Source: a bacterium (GTDB lineage Bacteria; Patescibacteriota; Minisyncoccia; Phycocordibacterales; UBA1006). From it: a stretch of 64,000 bases of DNA. Location: contig JBAWXN010000002.1 in the NCBI GenBank assembly GCA_037144045.1, positions 54,734-118,733 on the forward strand. The letters are read 5' to 3'. Shown in pieces: positions 4,348 through 49,677 of this stretch (its first letter is position 1; every line of letters starts with the position of its first letter). The position numbers and the translations under genes were made by a program. The notes under the pieces are model-generated. The model was not told where the DNA came from and made no database searches. It was given only the letters and a program-made list of their open reading frames with translations.

Positions 4348-4369
4348 CAAATCCCCTAGGGGATTTTTT
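4348..4369 (+). terminator. Rho-independent terminator after tig
   Basis: AAATCCCCTAGGGGATTTTTT hairpin plus T-run. Member of a recurrent AAAATCCCC/GGGGATTTT hairpin family (also at 35561 and 36741). Confidence 0.55.
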
Positions 4370-11553: not shown

Positions 11554-12156
11554 TTATCGATACAAGCCTTTTTCCTCGATATAATCATGCACCGCCTGCG
11601 GAATTACTTCTGTGGGTTTTTGATTTCCAGAAATCATGCCCCGTACATCGGTTGCGGATAGTTCTAGAACCCCCGGTAAAAAGGTTGCACGAATACCATG
11701 AGGCACGTCTACAGGAATATTTGAACGATTACGCACAATTAAATCGTGATACGTAACAATTTCATCACCGTATTCCCATGCCAAGATCGATCGCAAGATA
11801 TCATCCCCGGCAATGATTGAAAACGCATAATCAATATGTTTTGCTCGCAATGCACGCAGCGTGTGAAACGTATATGATGGCCGAGGCAGTTCGTCTTCGA
11901 TATCGCACACCTGCATATCCGGATTACTTACCGTTGCACGTCGTACCATTTCAAGGCGGTCTTCGAATGGAGCAAGGCTCCCTAATGGTTTATCAGGATT
12001 ATGTGGCGAAACCACATACCACACCTCGTTCACTAATCCTGCATCAAGGGCCGCTTGCCCAAGTGCAATATGACCGTTGTGAACAGGGTTAAATGAGCCA
12101 AAGAGTAAGCCAACTTTTTTCTTTTCTGCGTATTTCATAGGAATACTATAGCACAA
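11554..12156 (-). CDS. nadD: nicotinate-nucleotide adenylyltransferase
   Basis: FGSFNPVHNGH (HxGH nucleotidyltransferase motif) and the C-terminal LSATDVRGMI (ISSTxIR motif). 200 aa. Confidence 0.85.
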   Translation of the reverse strand: MCYSIPMKYAEKKKVGLLFGSFNPVHNGHIALGQAALDAGLVNEVWYVVSPHNPDKPLGSLAPFEDRLEMVRRATVSNPDMQVCDIEDELPRPSYTFHTLRALRAKHIDYAFSIIAGDDILRSILAWEYGDEIVTYHDLIVRNRSNIPVDVPHGIRATFLPGVLELSATDVRGMISGNQKPTEVIPQAVHDYIEEKGLYR

Positions 12157-22995: not shown

Positions 22996-23065
22996 TGGTA
23001 CTCTTTTTTTGTTTTGGTTAAAAAATAAATAGTTAAATACAATTAGTGATTCTTGCGATACCTTA

Positions 23066-23926
23066 CTATACAGGATAGGCTGCGAACTTGTGAAACCCAA
23101 GAGGCCAGAGTGACTTGATGAGCTTGTAAAATCGAGTATGTGCTTGTTGTGCATCTGATTCTGCTCCCGCTTTGAATTCTTTCAATAGATCTTCATAGCT
23201 AGAATTAATCATTTGCTCATCCGGCACAAGAGTCCCTGTTTCTAAATCTGCACCTAATACCTCAAGAACCGCATCGGTAACCGCTGCGATTTCCTCGGTA
23301 GTTTCCTGTGGAGAAAGCTTAGTTTCAATAACCGCCTTACTCCAATCGAATACTGCCACATAGTGCTGTTCACGATTGATTAGAATGTTTTCTGTGGTTA
23401 AATTATTAATAACCACATTAATACTCTGAGTGAATACCAACATTTTGAGTAGCTTACCAAGTATCCACGCGCTCGTTCTCGGATCCACACGGACCTGGTC
23501 GCGAGACGTTATGAACGACAAAGGTGCAAGCTCGTTTAATTTTCCCGAAGGGTTAATGTTTGGAAATCCAAGCACGATTACCCTGCGGTTTTCATGCTCG
23601 GTCATAACAAAGGTCTCAACGACCTCAGGAAAACAAAAGTGATAATTCAAAGGTATCTTTTCAGGATACTTTTTCGCAAATTCTGCTTCGATTACATCTG
23701 ATTCGCTACGCATCGTTTTTAAAAGGTACGCCTCACGGTCGAGCACAGGATTGTGCTCAGCCTTTTTGGCTACCTTAAAAATTGCCGTAGTTCCGTCTTC
23801 GAGTACGCATTCGCGTAATCGGTAAATGTCAGTCTCGCCAATTTCTTGCCTGACCTGGTACGTCTTGCCCGCTGGGCTTCTTATTACTATGTCCATTACT
23901 GTTTCTTTTTTAAATTTAGTTATCAA
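23066..23926 (-). CDS. protein-kinase-like fold protein lacking the catalytic HRD Asp (putative pseudokinase)
   Basis: Gly-loop-like EIGETDIYRL, VAIK-like AIFKVAKK, an alphaC Glu, NNLTTENILI in place of HRDLKPENIL, and DWS in place of DFG. About 70 nt upstream of the vWA gene. Confidence 0.4.
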   Translation of the reverse strand: MITKFKKETVMDIVIRSPAGKTYQVRQEIGETDIYRLRECVLEDGTTAIFKVAKKAEHNPVLDREAYLLKTMRSESDVIEAEFAKKYPEKIPLNYHFCFPEVVETFVMTEHENRRVIVLGFPNINPSGKLNELAPLSFITSRDQVRVDPRTSAWILGKLLKMLVFTQSINVVINNLTTENILINREQHYVAVFDWSKAVIETKLSPQETTEEIAAVTDAVLEVLGADLETGTLVPDEQMINSSYEDLLKEFKAGAESDAQQAHTRFYKLIKSLWPLGFHKFAAYPV

Positions 23927-24100
23927 AAAACAAATATGCCGTATATGTTATATCAAATTATTAGGATATGTCAATACTTCTCGATGAACTGTATAATTTG
24001 TTGCATTATGGCTTATTTAGTGTTATTATAACACTAAGAATGATCATGTGCAAGCACCTCCTAGTCCCCCTCCCTTGTAAAAGCATGCTACTATAATTCT

Positions 24101-25048
24101 ATGCAACAATTTAGATTTTTTAAAAAAGTAGATGAATATCGTACCTATATCTACGAAGAAATATTCACCCATCACGAATTTAGAAATAACCTTTTTTATC
24201 GTGGACTTATCGAATTCATTATTGAACACCGCGCCCCTATATTCTTCTCACTAACCAAAGACGAGGAATTCTCACATTTTACCCAATACTTTAACGCAGT
24301 GCTCGATCGAGGGGACTACTACAAAAATGATTTCATAAGAAGCATGTATTTTGCGCATGATTTTGTGCATATGCTTTTTAACAATCCTTTGCGTCCTCGT
24401 GATATGACTTTTGAAAAGTATTGCGAAGTACTCAACGTAAACGAATGGATTGCGTCTAATGAAACTGAAGTTTATACCTATTTTAGAATCGATGGTGCAC
24501 GTCACCACGGATTAGATTATACGATTCTCTATGATCTCCTAAAATACGCTGGGCACTCACAACCTGAAATAAAAAAACTGCTTGAGTTTAGAAAGCACGT
24601 AATTGGTGGTGGCGGTGAAGCAGTTCTTGAACAACACCCAGAAGCCACCATGGTGTTTAATTACTTGAGAAAGTTTAAAGAAAACAACAAAGCCTGGTGT
24701 AAGCTTTGGTATGAAGGCTTCCCTGAAATACCTGCGGCTTATACTGACGAACGCATGTGCCTCCCTGTACTTGAATACGATAAAATACTACGACACTACA
24801 CTCCTGGTATCCACGTGAACAATCAACAAGAGGCCTACGAGTACAACATGTTGCTCAACATTAAAAACCTTGCACTCCTTGCAGGGTTACCAGAAGAGCA
24901 TATTCCAAAAACTTTTGACGATTGCGAAAAAACACTTGAGCAACTCGAAGGAAAAATCATTATGCCTAAAGTCGCCGAGGAATTTCATTATACTTATATC
25001 AAAAATAAGAAGGTGGGAACTCCTGAGAAAAAAGAACTGAATCCATAA
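24101..25048 (+). CDS. hypothetical protein (315 aa)
   Basis: ORF with its own terminator. No family recognised. Confidence 0.35.
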   Translation: MQQFRFFKKVDEYRTYIYEEIFTHHEFRNNLFYRGLIEFIIEHRAPIFFSLTKDEEFSHFTQYFNAVLDRGDYYKNDFIRSMYFAHDFVHMLFNNPLRPRDMTFEKYCEVLNVNEWIASNETEVYTYFRIDGARHHGLDYTILYDLLKYAGHSQPEIKKLLEFRKHVIGGGGEAVLEQHPEATMVFNYLRKFKENNKAWCKLWYEGFPEIPAAYTDERMCLPVLEYDKILRHYTPGIHVNNQQEAYEYNMLLNIKNLALLAGLPEEHIPKTFDDCEKTLEQLEGKIIMPKVAEEFHYTYIKNKKVGTPEKKELNP

Positions 25049-25051
25049 TAA

Positions 25052-25090
25052 AAAATAAAAACCCGCTATCGTGAGCGGGTTGTTTTTTTT
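25052..25090. terminator. bidirectional Rho-independent terminator
   Basis: ACCCGCTATCGTGAGCGGGT hairpin with a T8 run, shared by convergent genes. Confidence 0.55.
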
Positions 25091-25105
25091 AGAGAATGTT
25101 TGTGA

Positions 25106-26461
25106 TCATCCTACTAAAGCTGATTGTTTCTCTGTGCCGTAATACTCTTCATACTTTTCAGTATTGAATGAGTAAGCACCCTGGAAAAATTCAATGACTT
25201 TTTTAGTATCACGTAGTGCATTAGCAGGAGCAATAGAAGCGCCTGGTGAAGGAGCAATATTACCTAAGAAATTTGGTCCGACTACTTGAGTATCACCTAA
25301 TTCTAATGTTCGCTTGATGGTATCTACTAATTGCGGGCGTAAGCCTCTTCCTTTGTGGAAAACTAACTGAGAAGATTGCAAACTTGGAATAATCTTGCGC
25401 GCTGATTGTGTAAATAAATCTTTGCCAATCAGTGGTAACTGAAATGACATATTCTGTGCCATGTACCCTAACATTTCAGGGTCTGCAAGTATTCCCGTGA
25501 GGGTTGCAACGCCGTCCCATGTTGGAACTGAAACACGTAAGAAGTCCATTACTGTTGACCAATCACCGTCTACCAATGTAGGCAACACAATTGCAGTAGG
25601 TCCGAAACGAGTAATGTTTGGATTATGCATTTCAGCATCACCATGCACGGCAGCAAACGGACGCTTAGGGTTTTGTACCGTGTACACCTTTCCGATAAGT
25701 AACGGTACTATCGAATCGTAAAAATTTCCTCCGATAGGTAAAATACCCAAATGTTGTCCCAAGCCTAGCGCTTTTGCAGCGATAAGACTATAGGCACCGG
25801 TTGCAAAGATAACCACATCCGCAGTGTACTGAAAACCTTTTGAATCAGTCAGTAAGTACTTATCACCAATGCGAGTTATCTGGCGTTCCATAATACGCGT
25901 ATTCATATAGCGCAACAATCGGCCAGTACTCACCGCATCATTAACATACCATTGTGCAAGTAATCCAAAATCAATCGTGTAGCCAGGATTAGAAATTGCC
26001 ACTACGTTTTCCTTCGGATTGCGCCCCTTCATTACCATTGGTTCTCTACGTGCAATTTCTGCACCATAAATGAGTTCCATTTCAGGAAAGAAGGGACTAA
26101 ATTCCTCGCTGCGAGTTGATACAATGTCACACTCTTCATCACCTACACCCAACAAAAATTTGGGTCCTTTGCGATACATGTCTGGGTTAACACCAATCAA
26201 CTTTTTAAGGTCAGTAACGGTGATATCCGTATCTGCTTTTACTTTTACCACTTTGTCACGTTTGTAGTGTTCAGTACTGCCATCGTGAATGGTTCCCGAA
26301 TTATTGGTTACTTTACTATTAAGGTTACCTATAGTATCCCCCATTTCAAAGAGTGCAATTGTAGGTATATCGGTAAAACGCACTAACTTGTTTACTAGTG
26401 AACCACCTACTACGCCACCACCTACTACTGCAACGTTTACGTGTCTTTCTATTCTGTTCAT
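25106..26461 (-). CDS. FAD-dependent oxidoreductase of the malate:quinone oxidoreductase / L-2-hydroxyglutarate oxidase family
   Basis: Rossmann VAVVGGGVVGGSL. NSKVTNNSGTIHDGSTEHY resembles the Mqo block [20 protein letters not shown]. 451 aa. Confidence 0.55.
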   Translation of the reverse strand: MNRIERHVNVAVVGGGVVGGSLVNKLVRFTDIPTIALFEMGDTIGNLNSKVTNNSGTIHDGSTEHYKRDKVVKVKADTDITVTDLKKLIGVNPDMYRKGPKFLLGVGDEECDIVSTRSEEFSPFFPEMELIYGAEIARREPMVMKGRNPKENVVAISNPGYTIDFGLLAQWYVNDAVSTGRLLRYMNTRIMERQITRIGDKYLLTDSKGFQYTADVVIFATGAYSLIAAKALGLGQHLGILPIGGNFYDSIVPLLIGKVYTVQNPKRPFAAVHGDAEMHNPNITRFGPTAIVLPTLVDGDWSTVMDFLRVSVPTWDGVATLTGILADPEMLGYMAQNMSFQLPLIGKDLFTQSARKIIPSLQSSQLVFHKGRGLRPQLVDTIKRTLELGDTQVVGPNFLGNIAPSPGASIAPANALRDTKKVIEFFQGAYSFNTEKYEEYYGTEKQSALVG

Positions 26462-26540
26462 TCTTTCTTTTATTTATGTTTGAGTGAGCAATATTTTTGT
26501 CTCTTATATAATAGCACATTTTCAATGAAAAGTCAACCTA

Positions 26541-27647
26541 TTACTTGGTATTTTCAAGCTTGTTTATAACGGTTTCTAAACCATTCCCCTTACAAAGGGC
26601 AGTGGTATCAGCAACGATATTGTTTGTGTACTTATCAAGATTTTCCAAAAATAATTTGAATGTCTCGGAATCTATTGCATCATGCATAACTCCAAAATTA
26701 TTTTCCTCAATAATATGCGCGTTCATTTGTTGCTCGTAAATAGGAAGCGGTATTGCGTAGACGGGTATTTCTAAATACATCGCTTCAGCAATTAATGTAT
26801 GCCCTGCAGTTGTAATAATTCCGTTTACTAACACTAATACTTTCATGAACTCCTCGTCATTATACTTATTCCAATATACGTTTACGGGCAATTGAGTCTG
26901 TGGGATACTCTGGGCAAAAACATGAAACACAACATCAGGGAATTTTTTAAAAACAGAGACGATAGATTCATGAGATTGTTTAATATCTTGATTGCTCGTT
27001 AAATACACAAGAATATTTTTCTGTTTAGAATTAGTACTTCTTTTCAAATGAACAACCGATTCTTTTATGATTGCAGGAACCACTAAAACATTCATACCCT
27101 CCTTTCCTTTTTTAGACACCTTAAAGAATGAACACGCAATACGTTCTACTGCAGTCGGGAAAAATAATTGCAACCTAGCTACCTCATCGGCATAGGTACA
27201 ATTATTAAGTGTTTCGGGAAAATCTCCGATTAAATATTTACTTTGTTGGTCAATGGTTACCAATGGTACGGCGTGTTCATAGGCGATACCTGCGCTGACC
27301 GGTTCGTAGTCACTTACTACAAGATCAGGAATTCCTAGCCAAGCTATCATTTCTATAATCGCCTTATTATTTATTGCGTCAAAATCAATATTATTTTTTT
27401 CAAGTTTTTTTGTCGCTTTAAAATCTATTCCTGTTTTATTTCCCACATAAAAAGGCACAGCAACTTCAAGTACTTTTATATTAATATCACCACCGAATAA
27501 AATATTACTGGTTTGGAAACTGGAACCGTAAGCAAAAATAGCAATTCGATTTGTTTTAGCAAGATGTTGAATAATAGGTAATTGTCGTTGCATGTGACCA
27601 TTTCCTATTCCACATATTCCATAGAGAATCTTTTTTTTGTTATTCAT
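26541..27647 (-). CDS. GT-B fold glycosyltransferase (GT1/MurG-like)
   Basis: N-terminal ICGIGNGHMQR loop. C-terminal TAGHTLIAEAMYLEIPVYAIPL..EQQMNA, the classic GT-B donor-binding region. 4-nt overlap (ATGA) with the upstream gene. Confidence 0.6.
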   Translation of the reverse strand: MNNKKKILYGICGIGNGHMQRQLPIIQHLAKTNRIAIFAYGSSFQTSNILFGGDINIKVLEVAVPFYVGNKTGIDFKATKKLEKNNIDFDAINNKAIIEMIAWLGIPDLVVSDYEPVSAGIAYEHAVPLVTIDQQSKYLIGDFPETLNNCTYADEVARLQLFFPTAVERIACSFFKVSKKGKEGMNVLVVPAIIKESVVHLKRSTNSKQKNILVYLTSNQDIKQSHESIVSVFKKFPDVVFHVFAQSIPQTQLPVNVYWNKYNDEEFMKVLVLVNGIITTAGHTLIAEAMYLEIPVYAIPLPIYEQQMNAHIIEENNFGVMHDAIDSETFKLFLENLDKYTNNIVADTTALCKGNGLETVINKLENTK

Positions 27648-28429
27648 AGTTTTTTTATTTCATCCGTCACAAATTCAAGTGCTCCTTCGATGGTGTATAC
27701 AGGTACTGTGGTTTTTCTCAGGTGTTGCGATAAATAACGCTCCGTTCCTTCTGGCGCTCTACCCACTAGTACATCATCATTATCATCTAACACAACATCA
27801 GCGTTTACCGCATCCATGAAATAGGGATAGAGCATGTGCACTCGTGAATCACCCACTACTTGTTTTAAAATATTTTTATAACTATTCAATTTTACTACAA
27901 CAACCGCATCTATTTCCCCGTAAGCTTCTGATTGATAATCAATAATAATTCTGTCCCAAACTTCTACTCGATTATTACTCATCAAGATATCAGGGATTGA
28001 ATCAGTATTTTTTATACTTACCGCAGTGGTACCTGCATTCATAAATAACTTATCGTTAATAAACGAAACGATTGTTTTATTTCCAGAATCAATTCTTGCT
28101 CCTTGTTCTAATAAATTCAAAGCAACTGTTGTTTTCCCTGAGCCTGAATGACCAATGATAAGTACCCGTTTATGGATCGAAACACATGCACCATGCACAC
28201 AGAACTGTTTTCTTGTGAGTAACTCCCTGCGCAGCAAACCATAGAGTTTTTGTGCGAAACCAGCTACTCCATCATACGTAACTGACAGGTCTATTTTTTC
28301 CGGCACTTGAGAGCTTTTTTTAATTCCGGGAACATAAGCGCTTAACACAAGCTCTTCGTTTTGAGTAATACCCTGTTCATGGATAAGCTCTATTGTTATT
28401 TGATTTTCGACACTATAGTAAGTTTTCAT
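27644..28429 (-). CDS. HprK C-terminal-domain-like P-loop protein (putative small-molecule or protein kinase)
   Basis: VHGACVSIHKRVLIIGHSGSGKTTVALNLLEQGARIDSGNKTIV aligns with the HprK/P C-domain block [43 protein letters not shown]. Translationally coupled to both flanking glycosyltransferases. Confidence 0.55.
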   Translation of the reverse strand: MKTYYSVENQITIELIHEQGITQNEELVLSAYVPGIKKSSQVPEKIDLSVTYDGVAGFAQKLYGLLRRELLTRKQFCVHGACVSIHKRVLIIGHSGSGKTTVALNLLEQGARIDSGNKTIVSFINDKLFMNAGTTAVSIKNTDSIPDILMSNNRVEVWDRIIIDYQSEAYGEIDAVVVVKLNSYKNILKQVVGDSRVHMLYPYFMDAVNADVVLDDNDDVLVGRAPEGTERYLSQHLRKTTVPVYTIEGALEFVTDEIKKL

Positions 28430-29415
28430 AATGATTTAATTGCTTTGTAAACAGCAACGCCTCCGTCACTTCCAAATTCATCTAATAATGTTTTTGTGCC
28501 ACATATTGTCGGCAAGTTTCCTTCTAAACTATTTTCATCGCTTATCGATGCACTTACTAATCCCTTTTGTTTCATAAGTTCTAATTGTTCTTTCTGGCTT
28601 TCATTAGCAGGAGGTAACCACACTGTAGGAATATCGTAACTTGCTGTGTCATAAATATTTCCAAGTCCTGGGGTCATGAATGCCAATTTTGTTCTCTTGA
28701 GCAGTTCCTCCATTTCATCACGCGCATAGCTTTTTACATTGAATTCTGAAAGACGTTCTGCTACCGCACTACTGGTTGCAATAACAACCTTGTCCAATGA
28801 ACCTAATAAGGCTTGGACTGTTTTAATATTCTGGCGCGCATAGTCTTCGACATCATCTAATTTCCAATGCGGATTTTGTAGACCACCCATATTCAGTAAC
28901 ACAACATCTTTATTCTTTGCAGGTTCTTGAACAGAAACGATTGGGGGTACTACTATTGTATTTTTAGAAAATTTATTACGCTCATTCTTAATGCGGTCCG
29001 TTACTCCAATAAAGTTTTGTGCGATATACATATCACATCCTGTAATTACCGGATGAATGTCTTTCCAAAACCAAGTCAGGGGGTCATAAATAATTACCTG
29101 GAGTCCTAATGATTGAGCACGAGCTGCCATTTCAAAATCAAGTGCGGTAATAAATACGTCATATTTCTTTATAATCAAATCAAGCTCAGTAGGTTCATAA
29201 TCAGCACTATCATACACCGCATCGTAAGCGAGCGATCGTTGGAGATCAAGAGTATGACGAGTACCCATATATGCCAGGGTTTCATAGTCATTCCTTAAGT
29301 AAGGAAAGAATGTAGCAATGGCTGCTGCTGGCCCAAATCCAAACGGTTCGGCATTGAGTAAAATTTTACGTGATGTTTTTTTCATATGATTCAATTCCAT
29401 ACATGAGTTTTCCAA
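28426..29415 (-). CDS. GT-B-like glycosyltransferase (divergent)
   Basis: N-terminal Gly-rich NAEPFGFGPAAAIATFF. C-terminal TPGLGNIYDTASYDIPTVWLPPANESQKEQ fits the GT-B C-domain pattern. The start may be an internal Met (29400 or 29385), which reduces the overlap with the PhyH gene. Confidence 0.45.
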   Translation of the reverse strand: MENSCMELNHMKKTSRKILLNAEPFGFGPAAAIATFFPYLRNDYETLAYMGTRHTLDLQRSLAYDAVYDSADYEPTELDLIIKKYDVFITALDFEMAARAQSLGLQVIIYDPLTWFWKDIHPVITGCDMYIAQNFIGVTDRIKNERNKFSKNTIVVPPIVSVQEPAKNKDVVLLNMGGLQNPHWKLDDVEDYARQNIKTVQALLGSLDKVVIATSSAVAERLSEFNVKSYARDEMEELLKRTKLAFMTPGLGNIYDTASYDIPTVWLPPANESQKEQLELMKQKGLVSASISDENSLEGNLPTICGTKTLLDEFGSDGGVAVYKAIKSL

Positions 29416-30502
29416 GTAAGGATAACTGTTCTGGTTTTCTTACTTCTTCTAACATTTTCGGATTAGTATATCTTGGTTTTTTACTCGCATGCATGAGTGC
29501 TTCGCGGTTATTACTTCCTATTCCAGAACGAAACGCTTCGTGACGTGCATTCACTAGTGTATGATCAGTTTCGCAAGCAGGCCCGGCTGCAGTATAGGCA
29601 ACATACCGAATATCTTGAGAAATATTTTCAGTATTTGCATGAGTAGTACGACTATCCCATAATACCAAATCGCCTTTACGTAGTGGAAATGCTTGAAGCT
29701 GTTTATCGATCCAAGAAACACCTGCAAGAGATTCTGGTAGTTCAACATATTCACCCTTGTTCGGTACATGCGGCTTATAATCAAGAAAATGGTTTCGTGA
29801 TCCAATTGCCGCAACGAACGTTCCTCGCTCAACTGGACAATCTACTAGGGCAAGCACGCCTTGAACCGTTCTAAAGTCAGGATGAATCAACGGATTCTGA
29901 TCGACATGTAACGATAGTGCTTTTGATTCTGCATGGTGAGGCAATTTGACTCCTAACCGATCAAAACTAGTCCAAATATCGTATCTATTCCAAATAAGTA
30001 CCTGAGCCAAGTAATGAATTACCGACTGACGAATTTGTGCAAGTATATCATCATGATACAACTCGAAGAATCCTCGAGAGATAAATGGAGTACCTGCATC
30101 ATCAACAGGGATAGCATTCCACGAATCAGCATTATTCAATTCGCAAACACCATTACTCATCAGCTTAACCACTTCATTCATTCTTGCAATAGTTGCATCA
30201 CATTGATGTACACTTATTACATTCTTGATAACTACTACACCAAATTTGCTCCAAGTATCTACTAACGAAGCTTCATCAGCAAGTGGATCGAATGCGATCG
30301 CATATCCATCACGATCAAGAGGATACTTTTCAGCCCGGCGAACAGAAACCAACTTTTTCAAATTTGTAGACGAACTGTTTGTTTTAAGACTTTCTTTAAC
30401 CTCTGAAATAAGTTTGATAACATCAGTATCTGATGACGAATTGGTTTTCGTATTTAATTGTAATTTCGTAGCTAGCTGCTTAATAATTGGTGTAATAATC
30501 AT
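29366..30502 (-). CDS. phytanoyl-CoA dioxygenase (PhyH)-family Fe(II)/2-oxoglutarate oxygenase
   Basis: HVDQNP (HxD) and a distal His in TTHANTEN, in a 378-aa protein with PhyH-like spacing. Confidence 0.6.
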   Translation of the reverse strand: MIITPIIKQLATKLQLNTKTNSSSDTDVIKLISEVKESLKTNSSSTNLKKLVSVRRAEKYPLDRDGYAIAFDPLADEASLVDTWSKFGVVVIKNVISVHQCDATIARMNEVVKLMSNGVCELNNADSWNAIPVDDAGTPFISRGFFELYHDDILAQIRQSVIHYLAQVLIWNRYDIWTSFDRLGVKLPHHAESKALSLHVDQNPLIHPDFRTVQGVLALVDCPVERGTFVAAIGSRNHFLDYKPHVPNKGEYVELPESLAGVSWIDKQLQAFPLRKGDLVLWDSRTTHANTENISQDIRYVAYTAAGPACETDHTLVNARHEAFRSGIGSNNREALMHASKKPRYTNPKMLEEVRKPEQLSLLGKLMYGIESYEKNIT

Positions 30503-30542
30503 AAGGAAAAGAAAACCTGCGCGAGCGCAGGTGCATTAATAA

Positions 30543-30836
30543 TTAACTGTTAGGATGTAGCGCATGCTTCTTTTTGAGACTCATGCGGTATTCACCACTC
30601 GGACGAGTTCCATAAATGCGAATACTCGATGAAAGTTTCACATCAGTTTCCGCACCACAACAAGGACAACAAAACGTAGTGTAATAATCGGTTGAGCCGT
30701 CATAACATTCATGACGTGTTTGGTATAAATCCATTTGAGAGACGAGGAGCACTGCTCCGCATCCAAGATCACCGTTTCCGGATCCTGTGCAAGTAAATTC
30801 CTTACCTGCAGCTCCACCTTCTTGTATAACTTTCAT
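30543..30836 (-). CDS. small Cys-rich protein (97 aa), first gene of the modification cassette
   Basis: Seven Cys including FTCTGSGNGDLGCG and TTFCCPCCGAETD. Could be a zinc-binding protein or a modified-peptide substrate. Confidence 0.3.
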   Translation of the reverse strand: MKVIQEGGAAGKEFTCTGSGNGDLGCGAVLLVSQMDLYQTRHECYDGSTDYYTTFCCPCCGAETDVKLSSSIRIYGTRPSGEYRMSLKKKHALHPNS

Positions 30837-30985
30837 ATGATTGTTTTTTGAATTGAAAAGAATGATACATACCCAGTATATTCAGAAATAAAATTTGTAC
30901 CGAAAAAATACGAGCACTTGTAACAAGCACCAGTGGTTAATCTAGAAACCCTTTATTTTTAATAGTATTTTGCTATACTTACCAT

Positions 30986-31001
30986 GTAACAAATTTGTTA
31001 C
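30986..31001. promoter_or_regulatory. perfect 16-bp palindrome GTAACAAATTTGTTAC, candidate TrmB-type operator
   Basis: Lies 12 bp upstream of the start of the TrmB-like gene at 31014. It sits in the divergent promoter region shared with the Cys-rich/PhyH/GT cassette. A related CTTGTAACAAG lies about 70 bp upstream. Confidence 0.4.
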
Positions 31002-31013
31002 AGATATTACTCT

Positions 31014-31742
31014 ATGAACACGATTACCACCTCCCTTACCCAATTAGGTCTTTCAGTCCACGCTGCTGATATGTATGTATTCCTCCTTGAACGTGGACAA
31101 AAAACCGCAACTGAATTAGTTTCAGGATTACGACTCCATCGCCCGCAAGTCTATCGAGCCCTTGGCGAACTGCACGAATCACAACTTATTGTTCAAACCA
31201 CTTCTGGAAGTCAGAAAAAGTATTACGCTGAACCACCCAAGAAACTCGACCGCCTTGCCAAAGATGTTGCCGATCGCATTACCACTATCATTCCAGAACT
31301 CGAGGAACGCAGCTTACGCAAAAATAACCAACCTTTTGTGAAAATACTTGAAGGATCCAAAGGGATACGAGCCGTGTTCGACGACCTTGTGGAATCATGC
31401 AGCAAAGGCGAGATTTTTTATCGGTACACCTCGGAGCTTGATCTCGATAAAGTGAATAGCTTCCTTCCCAAAGATTATCGGATACGTCGTGACACAAAAA
31501 AACTTGAGCGGTTCGTTATTAGTAATAAATTATCCGGAAGTCAAAAAAAACAACGCCTCGAACGTACCCTAAAATTTATTCCTCAAGATGACCCGTTTAA
31601 TCAAAATATTATTGAACTGATCTATGCAAATAAGGTCGCCATTATTGACCTGAACACTCAGACGAGCCTCCTGATCGAAAATGAAAGTATTGCAGCATTT
31701 CAAAAGGTAATCTTCCGAAATTTGTACAAACGACTCATATAA
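31014..31742 (+). CDS. TrmB-like transcriptional regulator
   Basis: N-terminal wHTH LGLSVHAADMYVFLLERGQKTATELVSGLRLHRPQVYRALGELHESQLI, plus the C-terminal domain shared with the paralogs. Confidence 0.6.
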   Translation: MNTITTSLTQLGLSVHAADMYVFLLERGQKTATELVSGLRLHRPQVYRALGELHESQLIVQTTSGSQKKYYAEPPKKLDRLAKDVADRITTIIPELEERSLRKNNQPFVKILEGSKGIRAVFDDLVESCSKGEIFYRYTSELDLDKVNSFLPKDYRIRRDTKKLERFVISNKLSGSQKKQRLERTLKFIPQDDPFNQNIIELIYANKVAIIDLNTQTSLLIENESIAAFQKVIFRNLYKRLI

Positions 31743-31867
31743 GGTTCCTGTACACCTCGAATATTTTCTGGTATGGTGAAACCAGAGATGTCCCGTTATT
31801 CTTATACGATCCAACCTCTTTATCTCTCTTAACTGACTTTTAAAAAACGGCATAACTGCCCTGACTT

Positions 31868-33391
31868 ATGAAATTTTTAATACTTACCGACATTATTGCG
31901 GTAATCCTTGGGATTATTGCTGGGTACTATGTGCGACAAATAGTGGCACGATTCCAAAAACGCTCTCTTGAAACAAACGTTAAGGAACTCATGCTTCGCG
32001 CCCGAGAAGACGCGACACGAATCACCGAAGACGCCGATCGCCGTGCAGAACATCGTTTACACGAATTGCGTAACCTAGAACGCGAACACGAAATTGAATT
32101 CAAAAAAAATAAAGACTTCCTCGTAAAAAAGGAGAGTCTTTTAGATGCCCGACAAATGGAAATTGATGTAAACTACGAAGACCTGAAGAAGAAGATCGAG
32201 GAAGTACGTGCACTGAAAGACAAAATGAATGAGGCTACCGCACGACAAGAACAAGAACTCGTACGTCTTGCAGGAATGAATCGAGAAGAAGCCCGCGATA
32301 TCATTGTTGCAAGTGCAGAAGAAAAATATAGTGAAGATATTTTGGTACGCCTCCGTAAACTCGAACTTTATGGCGAAGAAAAATATAAAGAGCGCGCTCG
32401 TTCAATACTCGTAACGGCAATTCATCGCCTGGCGAGTTCTACAGCCCATGACGTAACTACTACCGCGGTCGAAATTCCTAACGAGGAAACTAAAGGAAAA
32501 ATCATCGGAAAGGAGGGACGCAATATTAGAACCTTTGAACGCATTACCGGTGTTGAACTCATTATTGATGAGTCACCAGATGAAATTATTATTTCATCAT
32601 TTGATCCGGTGCGACGACAAATTGCTAAGGTTGCCATGGAAGAACTTATTAAGGACGGCCGCATTCAACCAGCAAAAATTGAGGAATTTTTTGAAAAAGC
32701 GAAAGATGATATCAATGAAATCATTAGACGCAAAGGTGAAGACGCGGTACACGAATGTGGTATCTATACCCTTGATCCGCGCATTGTTGCTATTATTGGT
32801 CGCCTACACTTCCGAACCAGTTATGGACAAAACGTATTGCAGCACTCAATTGAAGTGGCTCACCTATGTGAAATGCTTGCAACCGAGTTAGGCGCGGATC
32901 CTATGATTGCAAAAGTTGCAGGACTCGTTCACGACATTGGTAAAGCGCTCGATCATGAAGTTGAAGGAACCCATATCGATATTGGTATGCGCATCCTTGA
33001 AAAATTTGGCGCTGATCCGCGAGTTATCACCGCCATGAAATCACATCACGATGATTGGCCTCATGAAACCATTGAAGCAGTTATTGTACAAGTAGCTGAC
33101 ATGATTTCAGGTTCTCGTCCTGGCGCACGTCGTGATACTCTTGAAAATTACTTGAAGCGACTCCGTGAACTCGAAGCTGTAGTGAACACCTTTACCGGAG
33201 TTCAAAAATCATACGCACTCCAAGCAGGTCGCGAGATCCGAGTCTTTGTACACCCTGATCAAGTAAGTGACCTTGAAGCGAAACGAGCTGCCCGCGCTAT
33301 GGCTGTTCGTATCGAACAAGAGCTACGGTATCCTGGTGAAATCAAAGTAACCGTAATTCGTGAAAACCGTATTATTGAATACGCGCGGTAA
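31868..33391 (+). CDS. rny: ribonuclease Y
   Basis: N-terminal TM, coiled coil, KH domain GKIIGKEGRNIR, HD domain HSIEVAHLCEMLATELG...LVHDIGKA. 507 aa. Confidence 0.9.
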   Translation: MKFLILTDIIAVILGIIAGYYVRQIVARFQKRSLETNVKELMLRAREDATRITEDADRRAEHRLHELRNLEREHEIEFKKNKDFLVKKESLLDARQMEIDVNYEDLKKKIEEVRALKDKMNEATARQEQELVRLAGMNREEARDIIVASAEEKYSEDILVRLRKLELYGEEKYKERARSILVTAIHRLASSTAHDVTTTAVEIPNEETKGKIIGKEGRNIRTFERITGVELIIDESPDEIIISSFDPVRRQIAKVAMEELIKDGRIQPAKIEEFFEKAKDDINEIIRRKGEDAVHECGIYTLDPRIVAIIGRLHFRTSYGQNVLQHSIEVAHLCEMLATELGADPMIAKVAGLVHDIGKALDHEVEGTHIDIGMRILEKFGADPRVITAMKSHHDDWPHETIEAVIVQVADMISGSRPGARRDTLENYLKRLRELEAVVNTFTGVQKSYALQAGREIRVFVHPDQVSDLEAKRAARAMAVRIEQELRYPGEIKVTVIRENRIIEYAR

Positions 33392-33394
33392 ATA

Positions 33395-33433
33395 AAAAAA
33401 ACAAACCCTTTGGTGTTACCAAAGGGTTTTTGT
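33395..33433. terminator. bidirectional Rho-independent terminator
   Basis: AAACCCTTTGG-tgtta-CCAAAGGGTTT with flanking A/T runs. Confidence 0.6.
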
Positions 33434-33756
33434 TAAATATTATTTTTTTCTACAAGCGCCTGTTCATAGTCTGCAAGTGGAGCAATGTCCCATCCTAATT
33501 CTTTAGCAACCGCCTCAGCAGTTTCCTGACTCGTGGGAAGTAGCTCTAATAGTGTTGCAACTACTATTCGTCCATTCTGGAAATGTGCATTTGGAATTGA
33601 TTCAAGCAATATGTTTTTTGAGTGTTCATAGCGACTACTTGTGTCAAACTCCTCACCACCTTCCCATGAAACTATTACTTCAATCTTACCTTTGTAAAAA
33701 ATTACTTTCCTTCGATTAAGAAGGTTAGCGAAACGAAACCAAAATTCAATCTTCAT
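33433..33756 (-). CDS. hypothetical protein (107 aa)
   Basis: ORF only. Confidence 0.3.
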   Translation of the reverse strand: MKIEFWFRFANLLNRRKVIFYKGKIEVIVSWEGGEEFDTSSRYEHSKNILLESIPNAHFQNGRIVVATLLELLPTSQETAEAVAKELGWDIAPLADYEQALVEKNNI

Positions 33757-33774
33757 AGTTATTACTTTAATACA

Positions 33775-33939
33775 TTACATGGCCTTACGTGGGATATGCT
33801 TCATTTGTGATCGTCCCCCTCCTTTAAGTGCTTTGGTGTTTACTGAACGATTCCCTACATTAACACCTTGTCTTTGGGTATCTAAAAATGTACTTCTTTT
33901 CTTAGAGTTATGAGTTCCTTTACGGTTTTTGTTTGGCAT
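33775..33939 (-). CDS. small highly basic protein (possibly ribosomal-protein-like)
   Basis: MPNKNRKGTHNSKKRSTF...GNRSVNTKALKGGGRSQ. Lys/Arg-rich, 54 aa from the internal Met. Loosely L34/L28-like but not assignable. Confidence 0.25.
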   Translation of the reverse strand: MPNKNRKGTHNSKKRSTFLDTQRQGVNVGNRSVNTKALKGGGRSQMKHIPRKAM

Positions 33940-34024
33940 AATATAGTTTTTTATACTATATAACAATTTATAATAAAGTCAAGTATTTTGAGACTTCCCC
34001 TCCCGATGTGTTATACTCATTTAT

Positions 34025-34498
34025 ATGGCAACAGAAACCGAACGCAAGTTCCTCTTGAAAGACAATTCTTGGAACACAGGAATTACAGGGACAGAATATA
34101 AACAAGGATACCTCGTGAGTAGTCCCGAGCGAACTGCACGCATTAGAATTGCAGGGAACAAAGGATACATTACTATTAAAGGTCCAGGTGCTGAAGGTTC
34201 GCTTACACGACCTGAATATGAATACGAAATCCCTCTTGCTGATGCAGAAGAACTATTTAACAACCTCTGTGAACCTGAAAAAATTGAAAAAACGCGATAC
34301 AAAATTCCTTTCGAAAACCATGTTTGGGAAGTAGATGTGTTTCACGGAACCAACGAAGGTCTTATCATGGCAGAAGTAGAGCTCGCAGATGAACACGAAG
34401 AAGTTATTATTCCACCCTGGATTGGTGATGAAGTGTCTGACGATCCTCGCTATTTCAATAGCAAACTCGCAAAAAATCCGTTTACTACTTGGGAATAG
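34025..34498 (+). CDS. CYTH-domain protein (CyaB/thiamine-triphosphatase-like triphosphate tunnel metalloenzyme)
   Basis: N-terminal ETERKFLL (ExExK), with Glu/Lys/Arg ladders across the beta strands typical of CYTH. 157 aa. Confidence 0.75.
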   Translation: MATETERKFLLKDNSWNTGITGTEYKQGYLVSSPERTARIRIAGNKGYITIKGPGAEGSLTRPEYEYEIPLADAEELFNNLCEPEKIEKTRYKIPFENHVWEVDVFHGTNEGLIMAEVELADEHEEVIIPPWIGDEVSDDPRYFNSKLAKNPFTTWE

Positions 34499-34568
34499 GT
34501 CTTTACGAAACAACGATTTAATGTATAATCACATTAAATCTTTTTGTTTCACTTTAATTGCGTAATCC

Positions 34569-35063
34569 ATGAGCACTGCAGCACTAGCACCTGAAAAAAC
34601 AGGTTTTCGTTTCTTTTCCCTTACTGAGTCAGGCCTCATCGAGCCAGGAATTCCAAGCTTTAAACAGCATGATGGCACATTATTAATAAAGCCACGGGGG
34701 AAACGAGGCCGCCAATTTAAAATATTTGCCAACACCACAATAAGCACAACCACTGCGGTCGTAAATAAAAGCGGTACATTCTATATCCAGTCTGGACTCA
34801 TTCAAGAATTCAACGAGGACAATGTGCTTCAAATACGAGATGCGTTGTCTTATTCTTTCGATAAAGTTGCTGTGTACCTTCCTGTTAACTTAGGGCGTAA
34901 ACTATTACTAGAAGAAACCCAAGGGTACGTAAACGAGCTTGCTCATTCATTTCTGATTTTGAAAGACAATACTTCATTTACCGTATGCCTTGGGAGGTCA
35001 TTTTACAAAGTTACCTACCTCAATAAAGAACTGACATGCACTTTAGTTCCTTTTACAGACTAA
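34569..35063 (+). CDS. hypothetical protein (164 aa)
   Basis: ORF only. Confidence 0.3.
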   Translation: MSTAALAPEKTGFRFFSLTESGLIEPGIPSFKQHDGTLLIKPRGKRGRQFKIFANTTISTTTAVVNKSGTFYIQSGLIQEFNEDNVLQIRDALSYSFDKVAVYLPVNLGRKLLLEETQGYVNELAHSFLILKDNTSFTVCLGRSFYKVTYLNKELTCTLVPFTD

Positions 35064-38193: not shown

Positions 38194-38589
38194 TTATATA
38201 TTTGCGCAAGTATCGGTAATATTCCAGATGGTGCTCAATTTTGCAATCCTTGTTTCACGATTAATATGTACCGCTACCGCATCCAGCATATATTTTGTTT
38301 CATGTGAAACCTTTCGTTCAGCTAAATACCATAAAACAGTCTTTTTAATCTTGGCTATTTTGTAGCCAGTTATATTTTCAAAAGGATTATAGCAGGATCC
38401 GTATTTTATAAGTGTTTTAACTTCTATAAAATGGAGTACTGGACCTAAGCGGGCTACTATATCTATTTCACCAATCTTCTTAGTATAATTTCTTTCAACA
38501 ATGATAAAGCCTCGTGAAACGAGATAGTCTACGGTGATTGACTCACCAAGTTCCCCTATTTTCTGTTTCTCAGAACTAAACTGTTTCAT
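38194..38589 (-). CDS. YraN/UPF0102-family endonuclease-like protein
   Basis: GEIDIVARLGPVLHFIEVKT matches the UPF0102 core GEIDLIA...FVEVKTR (PD-(D/E)xK-like). 131 aa. Confidence 0.65.
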   Translation of the reverse strand: MKQFSSEKQKIGELGESITVDYLVSRGFIIVERNYTKKIGEIDIVARLGPVLHFIEVKTLIKYGSCYNPFENITGYKIAKIKKTVLWYLAERKVSHETKYMLDAVAVHINRETRIAKLSTIWNITDTCANI

Positions 38590-38676
38590 ATATCTATAGT
38601 AACAAACGACAATAAATAACTAATCAGTAATTAATAAAAGACACATTATCGTCATTATCGACAAATATATGACGTT

Positions 38677-38742
38677 TTATCCACTATTTACCCTTAGTTA
38701 TTAACACTTACCCCCAAGTTATCCACAGTTTTAGTGGATAAC
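38677..38742. promoter_or_regulatory. cluster of three DnaA-box-like 9-mers in an AT-rich spacer
   Basis: TTATCCACT (38677-38685), a perfect TTATCCACA (38719-38727) and an inverted TTATCCAC(T) (38734-38742, GTGGATAAC on the plus strand). They sit within 66 bp in the AT-rich YraN-to-tRNA-Arg intergenic region. Confidence 0.3.
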
Positions 38743-38766
38743 TGTCGTTAATGTCGATTAGGTTTC

Positions 38767-38812
38767 ATCTATAGAAAAAGACACTCATGGTTGAGTGTCT
38801 TTTTCTATAGAT
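38767..38812. repeat. 46-bp perfect palindrome (21-bp arms, 4-bp spacer); likely bidirectional terminator or recombination site
   Basis: ATCTATAGAAAAAGACACTCA-tggt-TGAGTGTCTTTTTCTATAGAT immediately 3' of tRNA-Arg. Confidence 0.5.
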
Positions 38813-38819
38813 TATTATG

Positions 38820-38891
38820 TGCACCCGCTAGGACTCGAACCTAGAACGACAGTTCCGAAGACTGTAGTGATATCCGTTTCACTACGGGTGC
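38820..38891 (-). tRNA. tRNA-Arg (anticodon TCG), CCA not encoded
   Basis: Acceptor GCACCCG/CGGGTGC, anticodon stem-loop ACAGT-CTTCGGA-ACTGT, T-arm AGGTTCGAGTCCT. Confidence 0.8.
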
Positions 38892-39021
38892 ATATTACGT
38901 TCTCAGGCACTATAAGCGCTTTCGATTGTTGAAACACTATACATGATATCTTACGATAAATCAAATAATACTGAACGTCTTCTTGAGAAAATAAGGCAAA
39001 TAAGGTATAGTATCCCTGCTT

Positions 39022-39095
39022 GCGGCCATGGTTTAGTGGTAGAACACGTCCTTGCCAAGGATGAGATGGGAGTCCGATTCTCCCTGGCCGCACCA
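39022..39095 (+). tRNA. tRNA-Gly (anticodon GCC), CCA encoded
   Basis: Acceptor GCGGCCA/TGGCCGC, D-loop AGTGGTAG, anticodon stem-loop CGTCC-TTGCCAA-GGATG, T-arm GGGAGTCCGATTCTCCC, 3' ACCA. Abuts the cca start. Confidence 0.8.
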
Positions 39096-39097
39096 AC

Positions 39098-40628
39098 GTT
39101 TCACATGAAACACTCTATTAATACTCATTTAATCCCCCAACATGTTTCGCATGTAACAGAATCCCTTAAAGCCGCAGGTTTTGAGGCTTTTGTGGTGGGT
39201 GGATGTGTCCGGGATATTATTATGGGGCGTACACCTAAAGACTGGGACATTACCACAGACGCAGTACCTGAACAGATCATTAGCCTTTTTGAGTCTCAGG
39301 GTAAAAAAGTAGTTTACGAGAATGCTTTTGGGACAGTTGCTCTCATAGAAGAAAACGAACCATTTGATTCAGTTACTCGCCAGATTGAGATTACCCCATT
39401 CCGCAGTGAAACAACCTATTCCGATAATCGACACCCTGATGCTGTTACTTTTTCTAAAACATTGAATGAGGATTTAAAACGACGTGACTTCACTATTAAC
39501 GCACTTGCCTATGACATTGAAAACGACATACTGATCGATAATTATCAAGGTTTAAACGACATTGAAAACGACATACTAAAAACCGTTGGAAATGCTGAAG
39601 AACGGCTTTCTGAGGACGCACTACGTATCCTTCGAGGTATCAGATTTGCCGCACAACTAGGATTTACTGTTTCACATGAAACAATCAATGCTATGTTTCA
39701 CGTGAAACATTTATTGAATAACATATCTCAGGAACGAATTCGGGATGAATTCGTTAAAATGATCGATTCGAACCACCCAATTATTGCACTAGGAATCATG
39801 AAGCAATTGGGTATACTGGAAATGATTATACCTGAATTACTTGAAGGTGATGGCTGTGAACAAGGCGGAGTTCATAAATACGATGTTTTTGAACATTTAT
39901 TGCATGCTTGCCAGCACGCAGCAGATAAAGATTATACGTTCCACGTGAAACTTGCAGCTCTGTTTCATGATATTGGGAAACCAAGAACACGGAGACCTGG
40001 ACAGAAGAAAGCTTGGACCTTCTATGGTCATGAAGTCGTAGGAGCTCGAATGTCGTTAAAGATCATGGAACGGCTCAGGTTTCCTAAGTCAGACGCAGAA
40101 CTTGTTGTGAAACTTGTCCGTTATCATATGTTCTTCAGCGACACTGAACAGATCACACTATCTGCGGTTCGTCGTATGATTGCGAATGTTTCACGTGAAA
40201 ACATTTGGACCTTGATGCAAATTCGAGAATGTGACCGCGTCGGTATGGCAAAACCTGAAGCTCCTTATCGCTTACGTAAGTACCACGCAATGATCGAAGA
40301 GTGCCTTCGTGATCCAATATCTGTTTCACAGCTTAAGATTGATGGCAATTACCTTATGAAGGAGTTACACGTGAAACCAGGTCCTCGTATGGGATGGATG
40401 TTACACGCACTTCTTGAAGAGGTGCTAGAAAACCCTGAAAAGAACACAATTGAGTATCTTTCTGCAAGAATCAACACTTTCCAAGGTTTCACAGATTTAG
40501 AACTTAGAAAATTAGGCGAACAAGGTAAGCAAACTAAAGAAGAATTGGATGATGCTGAAATCACCAAGTTACACGTGAAACATGGGGTTGCAGCTCAATC
40601 AAAGAAGAAGTAATGTTTCACGTGAAAC
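39098..40628. repeat. array of eight near-perfect copies of the 14-bp palindrome GTTTCACGTGAAAC (CACGTG/CATGTG core) within and flanking the cca CDS
   Basis: Copies at 39098-39111 (overlapping the ATG), 39669-39682, 39695-39708, 39938-39951, 40188-40201, 40364-40377, 40568-40581 and 40615-40628 (2 nt after the stop). More copies lie just outside at 38297-38310 and 40812-40825, with half-sites at 39405, 40323 and 40911. The copies sit in two different reading frames. Confidence 0.6.
39105..40613 (+). CDS. cca: CCA-adding tRNA nucleotidyltransferase with C-terminal HD domain
   Basis: GGCVRDIIMGRTPKDWDITT (class II NTase GGxVRD...DxD), RRDFTINALA, and an HD domain ALFHDIGK. ORF 38943..40613 runs through the tRNA-Gly gene, so the start was placed at the first ATG after the tRNA (MKHSINTHL). 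Confidence 0.8.
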   Translation: MKHSINTHLIPQHVSHVTESLKAAGFEAFVVGGCVRDIIMGRTPKDWDITTDAVPEQIISLFESQGKKVVYENAFGTVALIEENEPFDSVTRQIEITPFRSETTYSDNRHPDAVTFSKTLNEDLKRRDFTINALAYDIENDILIDNYQGLNDIENDILKTVGNAEERLSEDALRILRGIRFAAQLGFTVSHETINAMFHVKHLLNNISQERIRDEFVKMIDSNHPIIALGIMKQLGILEMIIPELLEGDGCEQGGVHKYDVFEHLLHACQHAADKDYTFHVKLAALFHDIGKPRTRRPGQKKAWTFYGHEVVGARMSLKIMERLRFPKSDAELVVKLVRYHMFFSDTEQITLSAVRRMIANVSRENIWTLMQIRECDRVGMAKPEAPYRLRKYHAMIEECLRDPISVSQLKIDGNYLMKELHVKPGPRMGWMLHALLEEVLENPEKNTIEYLSARINTFQGFTDLELRKLGEQGKQTKEELDDAEITKLHVKHGVAAQSKKK

Positions 40629-40637
40629 AAAAAGGCC

Positions 40638-49642: not shown

Positions 49643-49677
49643 AAAATAAACCCATCTTGTTACAGATGGGTTTTTGT
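49643..49677. terminator. bidirectional Rho-independent terminator
   Basis: AACCCATCT-tgttacag-ATGGGTTT with A/T flanks. Confidence 0.5.

Follow-up and report, generated by a model that had tools for sequence, protein, structure and literature searches.

SnoK and SnoN of nogalamycin biosynthesis are Fe(II)/2-oxoglutarate (2OG) enzymes that work on a C-H of a glycoside's sugar, and the PhyH family to which they belong mostly acts on small molecules. Phosphoenolpyruvate carboxykinase (PEPCK), like HPr kinase (HprK), carries an acidic Asp-Asp pair after its P-loop. Cytosylglucuronate (CGA) synthase joins UDP-glucuronate to free cytosine (PMC3715490). Likenesses to these enzymes come together in a 64-kb stretch of the Patescibacteriota contig JBAWXN010000002.1 (the window), where four genes on the minus strand (30502 to 26541) encode a PhyH-type oxygenase, a first glycosyltransferase (GT), here called GTx, a P-loop NTP-binding protein and a last GT, here called GT13. 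This cassette is a compact, presumably glycoside-forming gene set built from three uncharacterized families. The analysis established it as a unit, fixed its boundaries, assigned the folds and catalytic motifs of its products, and separated it from a neighboring small open reading frame (ORF). We give about an even chance to the reading that 26541-30502 is a mobile four-enzyme module that builds or decorates a soluble cytoplasmic small molecule.

A preliminary description of the locus had listed five co-directional minus-strand ORFs, two ATGA overlaps, a TrmB-like gene and a 16-bp palindrome, and all of these are present in the sequence. The first cassette gene, identified from the ORF list and Pfam, encodes the 378-aa oxygenase (30502-29366, minus strand); its start at 30502 is right, because the N-terminus is conserved in orthologs. 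It overlaps the GTx gene by at least 20 nt. GTx (minus strand) ends at 28426 and begins at 29415, giving 329 aa, or at the NCBI start at 29385, giving 319 aa. The P-loop protein (28429-27644, minus strand, 261 aa) corresponds to protein WCG20_01985 of the metagenome-assembled genome (MAG) and is a presumed phosphotransferase of PEPCK/HprK fold. GT13, a 368-aa protein of the Glyco_trans_1_3 or MJ1255/VC2487 family, is encoded by the final gene (27647-26541, minus strand). The last three genes are joined by 4-nt ATGA start-stop overlaps at 28429-28426 and 27647-27644. G+C content is slightly lower over the cassette, at 0.36-0.39 between 26 and 30 kb compared with roughly 0.36-0.42 elsewhere in the window.

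To examine its conservation, we scanned with a GTx alignment, keeping one genome per species, and obtained 79 loci holding a GTx relative. All four genes were present in 45 of these, and 36 of the 45 had the gene order of the window. Six further loci lacked only the PhyH gene, and another six lacked one or two genes, with at least four of these reaching a contig edge. The remaining 22 held only a more distant GTx paralog and came mostly from Streptomyces and Pseudomonas, with a few other MAGs. The simple ORF caller used here produced spurious antisense ORF families in loci of high G+C content, which were disregarded. Contexts of P-loop homologs showed the same recurring PhyH-GTx-Ploop-GT13 arrangement, whose flanking genes change almost from locus to locus. 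When 1.84 billion cluster representatives were searched with a profile of the P-loop family, 206 members were returned at E ≤ 1e-30.

Many of these members are fusion proteins, and the cassette genes occur joined in every combination. One 1412-aa protein (P0317) contains the PhyH, GTx, P-loop and GT13 domains in a single polypeptide, in operon order. Other fusions, among them P0255, P0272, P0280, P0304, P0314 and P0315, join GTx-Ploop-GT13 (several cases), Ploop-GT13, GTx-Ploop or Ploop-GT13-GTx, so that the three-domain forms occur in two orders. Endozoicomonas has a GT13-GTx fusion. The conserved co-occurrence, order and fusions argue strongly for a single substrate shared by the four enzymes. 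They also bear out the proposal, made in the preliminary description, that the oxygenase, the two GT-B proteins and the P-loop protein form a translationally coupled unit with a conserved gene order. The same description had proposed a pathway of hydroxylation, glycosylation and phosphorylation; hydroxylation as an obligatory first step does not fit the absence of the PhyH gene from L004, L006, L010 and six further loci that keep the other three genes. The core of the module is, on present comparisons, the two GTs plus the P-loop protein, with PhyH as a frequent but optional step.

The cassette is present in at least ten bacterial and archaeal lineages. Hosts of the Patescibacteria type (Candidate Phyla Radiation, CPR), which the relatives and gene content of the window's own genome also resemble, include Saccharibacteria, Moranbacteria, Uhrbacteria, Peregrinibacteria and Peribacteria; other bacterial hosts include Melainabacteria/Obscuribacterales, Micavibrio, Bdellovibrionales, Chlamydiae, Endozoicomonas/Kistimonas, Magnetococcales and Planktothrix; and archaeal hosts, DPANN and other, include Nanoarchaeia, Woesearchaeota and a Methanosarcinales MAG. 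Homologs are annotated as hypothetical or as "TIGR00661 family", none of those found is characterized, and a search of a literature library found nothing on this gene set, in agreement with the earlier statement that it matches no described pathway. No scaffold-forming gene was conserved with the cassette among the loci compared. Searches of the four enzymes against PADLOC returned only P-loop noise (E ≥ 6e-4) and those against PHROGs nothing meaningful, and a defense or phage function was dropped on this result. The gene directly downstream of the cassette in Endozoicomonas acroporae (L053, 9404-11305) encodes an F-box-like/WD40 protein, whose domain pair is eukaryote-like.

The boundaries of the cassette were given by a near-identical relative that lacks it (L090 and L091, in which RNase Y is 99.4% identical to that of the window). 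The order there is RNase Y, TrmB, small ORF, a second small-ORF copy, a flavin adenine dinucleotide (FAD) oxidoreductase and orf315. Comparison of window positions 23001-35000 with L090 by blastn showed flanks of 83-87% identity up to 26536 and from 30571, between which L090 holds only the second small-ORF copy. The cassette of the window thus occupies the exact place of that copy, and because it is absent from this relative it represents an indel of about 4 kb (26537-30570, ~4.0 kb). The cassette is a self-contained, horizontally mobile, accessory module.

We next consider the four proteins individually. GTx has no Pfam match. Its sole model match at E ≤ 0.001 is TIGR04467 (CGA synthase), with E 4e-13 and 49.1 bits against an equivalog cutoff of 300; two far weaker matches lie at E ~0.06. 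GTx orthologs score 33-56 bits with this model, the E values of GTx and its orthologs ranging from 4e-13 to 3e-15, and in the L053 fusion only the GTx portion matches it. The alignment with an annotated CGA synthase covers 95% of GTx at 23% identity. Searches of the PDB with single protein sequences gave only noise for both GTs, and the GTx profile also found no match there. The structure model of GTx is a GT-B fold, with soluble natural-product GTs as its top structural matches. GTx is therefore a distant homolog of CGA synthase, and not a member of that family. No GTx relatives were found in IMG/VR contigs.

The GTx position is not always filled by the same family: in L006 and L010 it is taken by a GT1 of the EryCIII/UDPGT type. 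The Streptomyces and Pseudomonas paralogs of GTx stand alone or form a pair with a GT4 gene; their neighbors encode regulators, hydrolases and efflux pumps, and no nucleoside-antibiotic cluster was seen around them in the contexts examined. The GTx proteins of Chlamydiae and Kistimonas carry an extra conserved domain of about 300 aa, N-terminal in the Chlamydiae loci (L054 7113-8060, L056 5695-6540, P0315 residues ~690-1020), for which no Pfam or PDB match was found.

GT13 matches Pfam PF13528 (Glyco_trans_1_3) with 134 bits against a cutoff of 25. It also matches TIGR00661 with E 3e-30, yet under the cutoff of that model, and gives weak matches to the Glyco_tran_28_C and murG models. Its profile finds GT1 UDP-glycosyltransferases in the PDB (YjiC, OleD, and plant C-glycosyltransferases and UDP-glycosyltransferases) through the C-terminal nucleotide-sugar motif. 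Both GTs of the window have the two Rossmann-like domains and the C-terminal nucleotide-sugar motif of the GT-B fold and the GT1-like class.

The P-loop protein had been described as an HprK-type serine kinase, and this assignment does not hold. Its match to PF07475 reaches 24.4 bits against a cutoff of 33.3 and covers residues 75-115 only, and the likeness to HprK is confined to about 40-60 residues around the P-loop. TIGR00679 gives 24.9 against a cutoff of 240, and TIGR04355 and TIGR04352 give 23 and 18.6, each against a cutoff of 200. No match to Hpr_kinase_N was found. In HMMER alignments to 1jb1 and 1ko7, the HprK sequence RLIADD lies opposite RIDSGN of the P-loop protein. The Asp-Asp of the HprK L-[IV]-A-D-D motif is accordingly replaced by G116-N117, which is invariant in 27 family members as part of an invariant S-G-N-K-T motif. 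In structural superposition, PEPCK is the best match, over about 90% of the length and including the N-terminal 70 residues, which superpose on the PEPCK N-domain; HprK superposes over the P-loop half only.

These results led us to reject three identities for the P-loop protein. HprK/P is excluded by the scores under the cutoffs and the change of Asp-Asp to Gly-Asn. An HprK N-terminal domain was not found by the Pfam search, nor a ptsH gene among the roughly 20 window ORFs scanned. A lasso-peptide or GAK HprK-related kinase is contradicted by the sub-cutoff scores and by the fact that no lasso precursor or maturation genes and no GAK partners adjoin the cassette in any locus context examined. 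PEPCK proper is contradicted by the lack of a PF01293 match (weak in 4 of 27 relatives) and by the S-G-N-K-T motif standing where an acidic metal-binding motif is expected. The protein has the two-domain architecture and P-loop nucleotide domain of the PEPCK superfamily. It is a predicted P-loop enzyme of the PEPCK/HprK fold, whose chemistry may not be that of a standard kinase.

The oxygenase matches Pfam PhyH with 51.9 bits against a cutoff of 22. Residues H199, D201, H288 and R299 are invariant in 25 orthologs, and we read the first three as the iron triad and R299 as the 2OG-binding Arg. With this score, the H-x-D...H triad and the Arg, the protein is a predicted Fe(II)/2OG dioxygenase of the PhyH family. 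The nearest solved sequences to its profile are SnoK (E 1.4e-7) and SnoN (E 6.5e-3).

A small-molecule acceptor is probable, because both GTs are GT1-like, the P-loop protein is PEPCK-like, the PhyH enzyme is SnoK/SnoN-like and a GT1 can replace GTx. Such a substrate was a fallback in the preliminary description, and the resemblance of both GTs to GT1 small-molecule UDP-glycosyltransferases makes it the better supported choice. In the pathway that we propose, a GT1-like UDP-sugar GT would place the first sugar on the acceptor, the PEPCK/HprK-fold phosphotransferase would then add a phosphate, and the second GT1-like GT would add the second sugar. The PhyH dioxygenase would act as an optional step, probably oxidizing a C-H of the glycoside rather than making the glycosylation site. 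We infer the order GT, kinase, GT by analogy with the lipopolysaccharide (LPS) inner core, lipid A and the proteoglycan linker, and the donor sugars and the acceptor are inferred as well.

The module brings no gene for making a scaffold, and so a common metabolite is the expected acceptor. Our leading guess is a nucleobase or a compound derived from a nucleotide, weakly suggested by the kinship of GTx to CGA synthase and by recurrent nucleotide-processing neighbors. A NUDIX protein adjoins the cassette in L006, L050, L052 and L088 and is fused to the P-loop protein in L010; an NTPase_I-T (ITPase-family) protein adjoins it in five CPR loci; and a dCMP-deaminase-family protein adjoins it in L007/L017 (Micavibrio). 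A LOG-family nucleotide phosphoribohydrolase adjoins it only in L002, and the window itself holds no gene of the kind that supplies a free pyrimidine base or processes CGA in the CGA pathways.

Several observations weigh against such a pathway. The product, the substrate and the activity of every member are deduced from folds and neighbors. Nucleotide-related neighbors are limited to about a dozen of roughly 55 loci, and their families differ. The P-loop protein lacks the Asp-Asp pair after the P-loop and may not be a conventional kinase. The Streptomyces and Pseudomonas paralogs of GTx adjoin MerR, MarR and LysR regulators and efflux pumps, as is typical for xenobiotic modification. Finally, by a hydrophobicity heuristic, every cassette enzyme has a signal-peptide-like hydrophobic N-terminus in some Chlamydiae and gammaproteobacterial loci (L050 4839-9149, L054 4091-9143, L056 2681-7680 and L083 452-4844; proteins P0230, P0254, P0259, P0272, P0280 and P0292), and the P0266 fusion has a double hydrophobic N-terminal segment. 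Signal peptides would be odd for chemistry that depends on ATP, UDP-sugars and 2OG, and suggest export towards a host cell. Biosynthesis in the cytoplasm would explain the exported versions less well than would a secreted enzyme set with a target molecule in the host.

A bolder form of the small-molecule pathway can also be drawn. The module would make a new class of metabolite, a phosphorylated, oxidized diglycoside on a nucleobase or other universal metabolite (a "pyranosyl nucleoside" outside the actinomycete antibiotic pathways), with a part in the interaction of host cells with the predators and host-dependent microbes that carry it (CPR, DPANN, Chlamydiae, Bdellovibrionota, Endozoicomonas), the enzymes themselves being exported in some lineages. 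We regard this extension as possible but doubtful.

The same export signals could point to a macromolecular target. Here the module would modify a conserved macromolecule of bacteria and eukaryotic hosts, such as a translation factor, an abundant protein or a nucleic-acid base, and would serve as an exported effector set in host-associated lineages. The absence of a conserved scaffold gene would then reflect a universal substrate, the signal-peptide-like N-termini on all cassette proteins in L050, L054, L056 and L083 and the double segment of P0266 would be explained, and episymbionts, predators and intracellular bacteria feature prominently among the hosts. The multi-domain fusions, too, resemble cytoplasmic protein-glycosylation enzymes. 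However, both GTs are like GT1 small-molecule enzymes and unlike known protein GTs, PhyH enzymes favor small substrates, and neither a DNA- or RNA-binding domain nor a viral copy was found. An export signal is missing from most members, among them every listed close relative of the window proteins, and presence or absence between near-identical strains would be unusual for the modification of an essential factor. We judge this alternative unlikely.

The module might instead build a glycolipid or a lipid-linked envelope precursor, following the logic of a hydroxylated, phosphorylated diglycosyl lipid as in LpxB/LpxK/WaaA/LpxO. This would agree with the weak matches of GT13 to Glyco_tran_28_C and murG, with the naming of PhyH after an acyl-CoA 2-hydroxylase, and with the lipid-scavenging habit of many of the hosts. 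But none of the four window proteins contains a hydrophobic segment, none matches an Lpx or Waa family, and no lipid-carrier, flippase or acyltransferase genes neighbor the cassette in the contexts examined. The soluble natural-product GTs at the top of the structural matches, and the occurrence of the module in monoderm-like CPR, archaea and diderms alike, also argue against it, and we consider it quite unlikely.

The module was also considered as a resistance or detoxification cassette that would hydroxylate, glycosylate and phosphorylate a toxin or antibiotic from outside and so inactivate it. YjiC, YojK and OleD, which act on xenobiotics and antibiotics, are among the GT1 enzymes nearest by sequence and structure, and a resistance cassette would be accessory, horizontally spread and without scaffold genes, as this one is. 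MFS transporters adjoin the cassette in L007/L017 and L048, and the regulators and efflux pumps beside the Streptomyces and Pseudomonas paralogs point the same way. On the other side, strict co-occurrence, a fixed order and a four-domain fusion imply consecutive steps on one molecule, and two GTs plus a kinase exceed what inactivation needs. A role in detoxification is thus rather improbable.

The fifth gene of the set as originally described encodes a 97-aa Cys-rich product (30836-30543, minus strand, from the ORF list) directly upstream of the oxygenase gene. It belongs to a family of 29 members in which C16, C26, C57 and C60 are invariant in a zinc-ribbon pattern, and it is a real gene that encodes a predicted Cys4 zinc-ribbon protein. 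Its product matches phrog_2834 (E 1.5e-4), and relatives occur in three viral contigs and in a phage-like locus (L092). A search for homologs in 89 cassette-related loci, of which L001 is the closest, found none (0/89). Conversely, L090, L091 and the more distant L093 have the small ORF next to TrmB but no cassette; in L093, TrmB is divergent from a gene group whose last member is the small ORF. It is tandemly duplicated at L090 5001-5628 and L091 4454-5081, the copies being 95 and 109 aa long and about 55% identical to the window copy.

A hairpin that the preliminary description had not mentioned, found by a terminator scan and visible in the sequence, lies at 30532-30515 on the minus strand, in the gap that follows the small ORF and precedes the oxygenase gene. 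It consists of ACCTGCGC-TC-GCGCAGGT followed by the TTTCTTTT T-tract, is terminator-like, and would separate the small ORF from the cassette. In L001, which has the cassette and lacks the small ORF, the oxygenase gene begins directly at the shared promoter region. Transcripts from the shared divergent promoter of the window may still read through the hairpin into the cassette. Of the five-gene cassette first proposed, the oxygenase, GT, P-loop and GT genes therefore stand as a unit, and the small ORF is split off by the comparative data, with the hairpin in between.

That the cassette hydroxylates, glycosylates and phosphorylates this Cys-rich product, in the manner of ribosomally synthesized and post-translationally modified peptides (RiPPs) or of hydroxylysine glycosylation, is highly improbable: the small ORF is directly upstream on the same strand, a hairpin after the precursor gene is common in RiPP operons and HprK-related kinases phosphorylate HPr and lasso peptides, but the small ORF is not conserved with the cassette, its family occurs without it in viral contigs and at L090-L093, the cassette has no other small ORF as a constant companion across phyla and the P-loop protein lacks the HprK Asp-Asp.

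The cassette had further been placed under the control of the TrmB-like regulator encoded divergently from the small ORF (31014-31742, plus strand). This winged-helix protein matches Pfam TrmB over residues 8-75 with 38.7 bits against a cutoff of 25.6, and is 93% identical to its counterpart in L090, 80% in L001 and 45% in L093. A perfect 16-bp palindrome, GTAACAAATTTGTTAC, lies at 30986-31001, 12 nt before the TrmB ATG at 31014. It occurs once in the window, which holds five perfect 16-bp palindromes compared with about 1.2 expected from shuffles. In L001 it reads GTAACAATATTGTTAC, its center changed on both sides with the symmetry intact, and a TATACT -10-like hexamer stands 8 nt upstream in both sequence versions. 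A real operator at the TrmB promoter is supported because the change in L001 preserves the symmetry, and GTAACAAATTTGTTAC probably serves as the operator for the TrmB-like gene's own promoter.

The cassette-free L090/L091 also have TrmB, preceded by the identical palindrome, so both belong to the local chromosome and not to the cassette. A TrmB neighbor is present in only three cassette loci (the window, L001 and L002). A TrmB-regulated sugar operon was rejected on these grounds, and the small ORF, the TrmB-like regulator and the palindrome appear to form a separate local unit adjoining the cassette.

Inverted repeats of other sequence stand just upstream of the TrmB-like gene start in L093 (~4200-4235, ATGTATC-N7-GATACAT) and in L002 (~11840-11870, TTTTGTCGAA-N-TTCGACAAAA). 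Another perfect 16-bp palindrome of the window, AATCCCCTAGGGGATT, is at 4350-4365. A further one, TGTTTCACGTGAAACA, which we take to be the parS (ParB/Spo0J) consensus, has 11 copies with 0-3 mismatches within 2.5 kb at 38296-40826, perfect at 39694 and 40614, in and around a gene of the PolyA_pol/CCA-adding-enzyme family (38943-40613). The whole window holds 13 copies, compared with 0.42 expected. A palindrome with swapped halves, TGTGAAACGTTTCACA, is found at 49675.

The remaining neighbors of the cassette are RNase Y (31868-33391) and, on the downstream flank, an FAD-dependent oxidoreductase resembling Mqo, DAO and L-2-hydroxyglutarate oxidase in Pfam and NCBIfam matches (25106-26461, minus strand). 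The latter was rejected as a fifth cassette member: L090, which lacks the cassette, has it in the same position, and it is missing from other cassette loci. It is 77% identical to L090 5729-7084 and 44% identical to its positional counterpart at L001 9975-11327; orf315, TrmB and RNase Y are 80-94% identical to those of L001. The stretch from TrmB to orf315 has the look of a variable region. Between the oxidoreductase gene and the convergent gene at 24101-25048, a hairpin at 25060-25081 (AACCCGC...GCGGGTT) resembles a two-way terminator, each strand having its T-tract.

For annotation, the analysis corrects three tempting misreadings, as an HprK, as a RiPP precursor and as a TrmB-controlled sugar operon. 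Three of the four proteins come from families without a characterized member, namely the CGA-synthase-related GT, the mini-PEPCK/HprK-fold P-loop protein and the MJ1255/VC2487 GT. A compact 4-kb module without other dedicated genes should lend itself to expression and could offer a direct route to new glycoside chemistry and to a first function for these three families. Its enrichment in episymbionts, predators and intracellular bacteria, together with the exported versions of Chlamydiae, hints at a role in cell-cell interaction.

Comparison with known systems places the module beside several of them and within none. The GT1 small-molecule UDP/TDP-glycosyltransferases (YjiC, YojK, OleD, CalG1-4, SpnG) share the class of the window GTs, but the latter score under the Pfam UDPGT and macrolide-GT cutoffs, and no aglycone-forming genes lie near them. 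Compared with the PEPCKs of the ATP, GTP and pyrophosphate types, the window P-loop protein is half the size, about 10% identical and without the acidic motif after the P-loop. SnoK and SnoN are, like the window oxygenase, PhyH-type dioxygenases, but their match spans only about 90 residues of the double-stranded beta-helix core, and the window protein is longer by about 80 residues at the N-terminus and about 70 at the C-terminus, both stretches being conserved within its family.

In the order of enzyme classes, the module can be compared with the LPS inner core (WaaG/WaaP/WaaQ), lipid A (LpxB/LpxK/WaaA with LpxO) and the proteoglycan linker with FAM20B. The classes GT, kinase and GT match (GT-B, kinase and GT-B, with an Fe/2OG hydroxylase in the case of lipid A), and the proposed pathway shares with these glycan systems the idea that the phosphate between the two glycosyl transfers is needed for the next step. 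There is no family homology to the cassette; WaaP and FAM20B are protein-kinase-like folds, and the cassette has no membrane or lipid features. CGA synthase (BlsD and MilC in blasticidin S and mildiomycin biosynthesis) is a GT-B enzyme, as is GTx. Its partner genes, for a CMP hydrolase, a radical-SAM decarboxylase and an aminomutase, were not found in the window, and the partners of GTx are instead the P-loop protein, a second GT and a PhyH dioxygenase.

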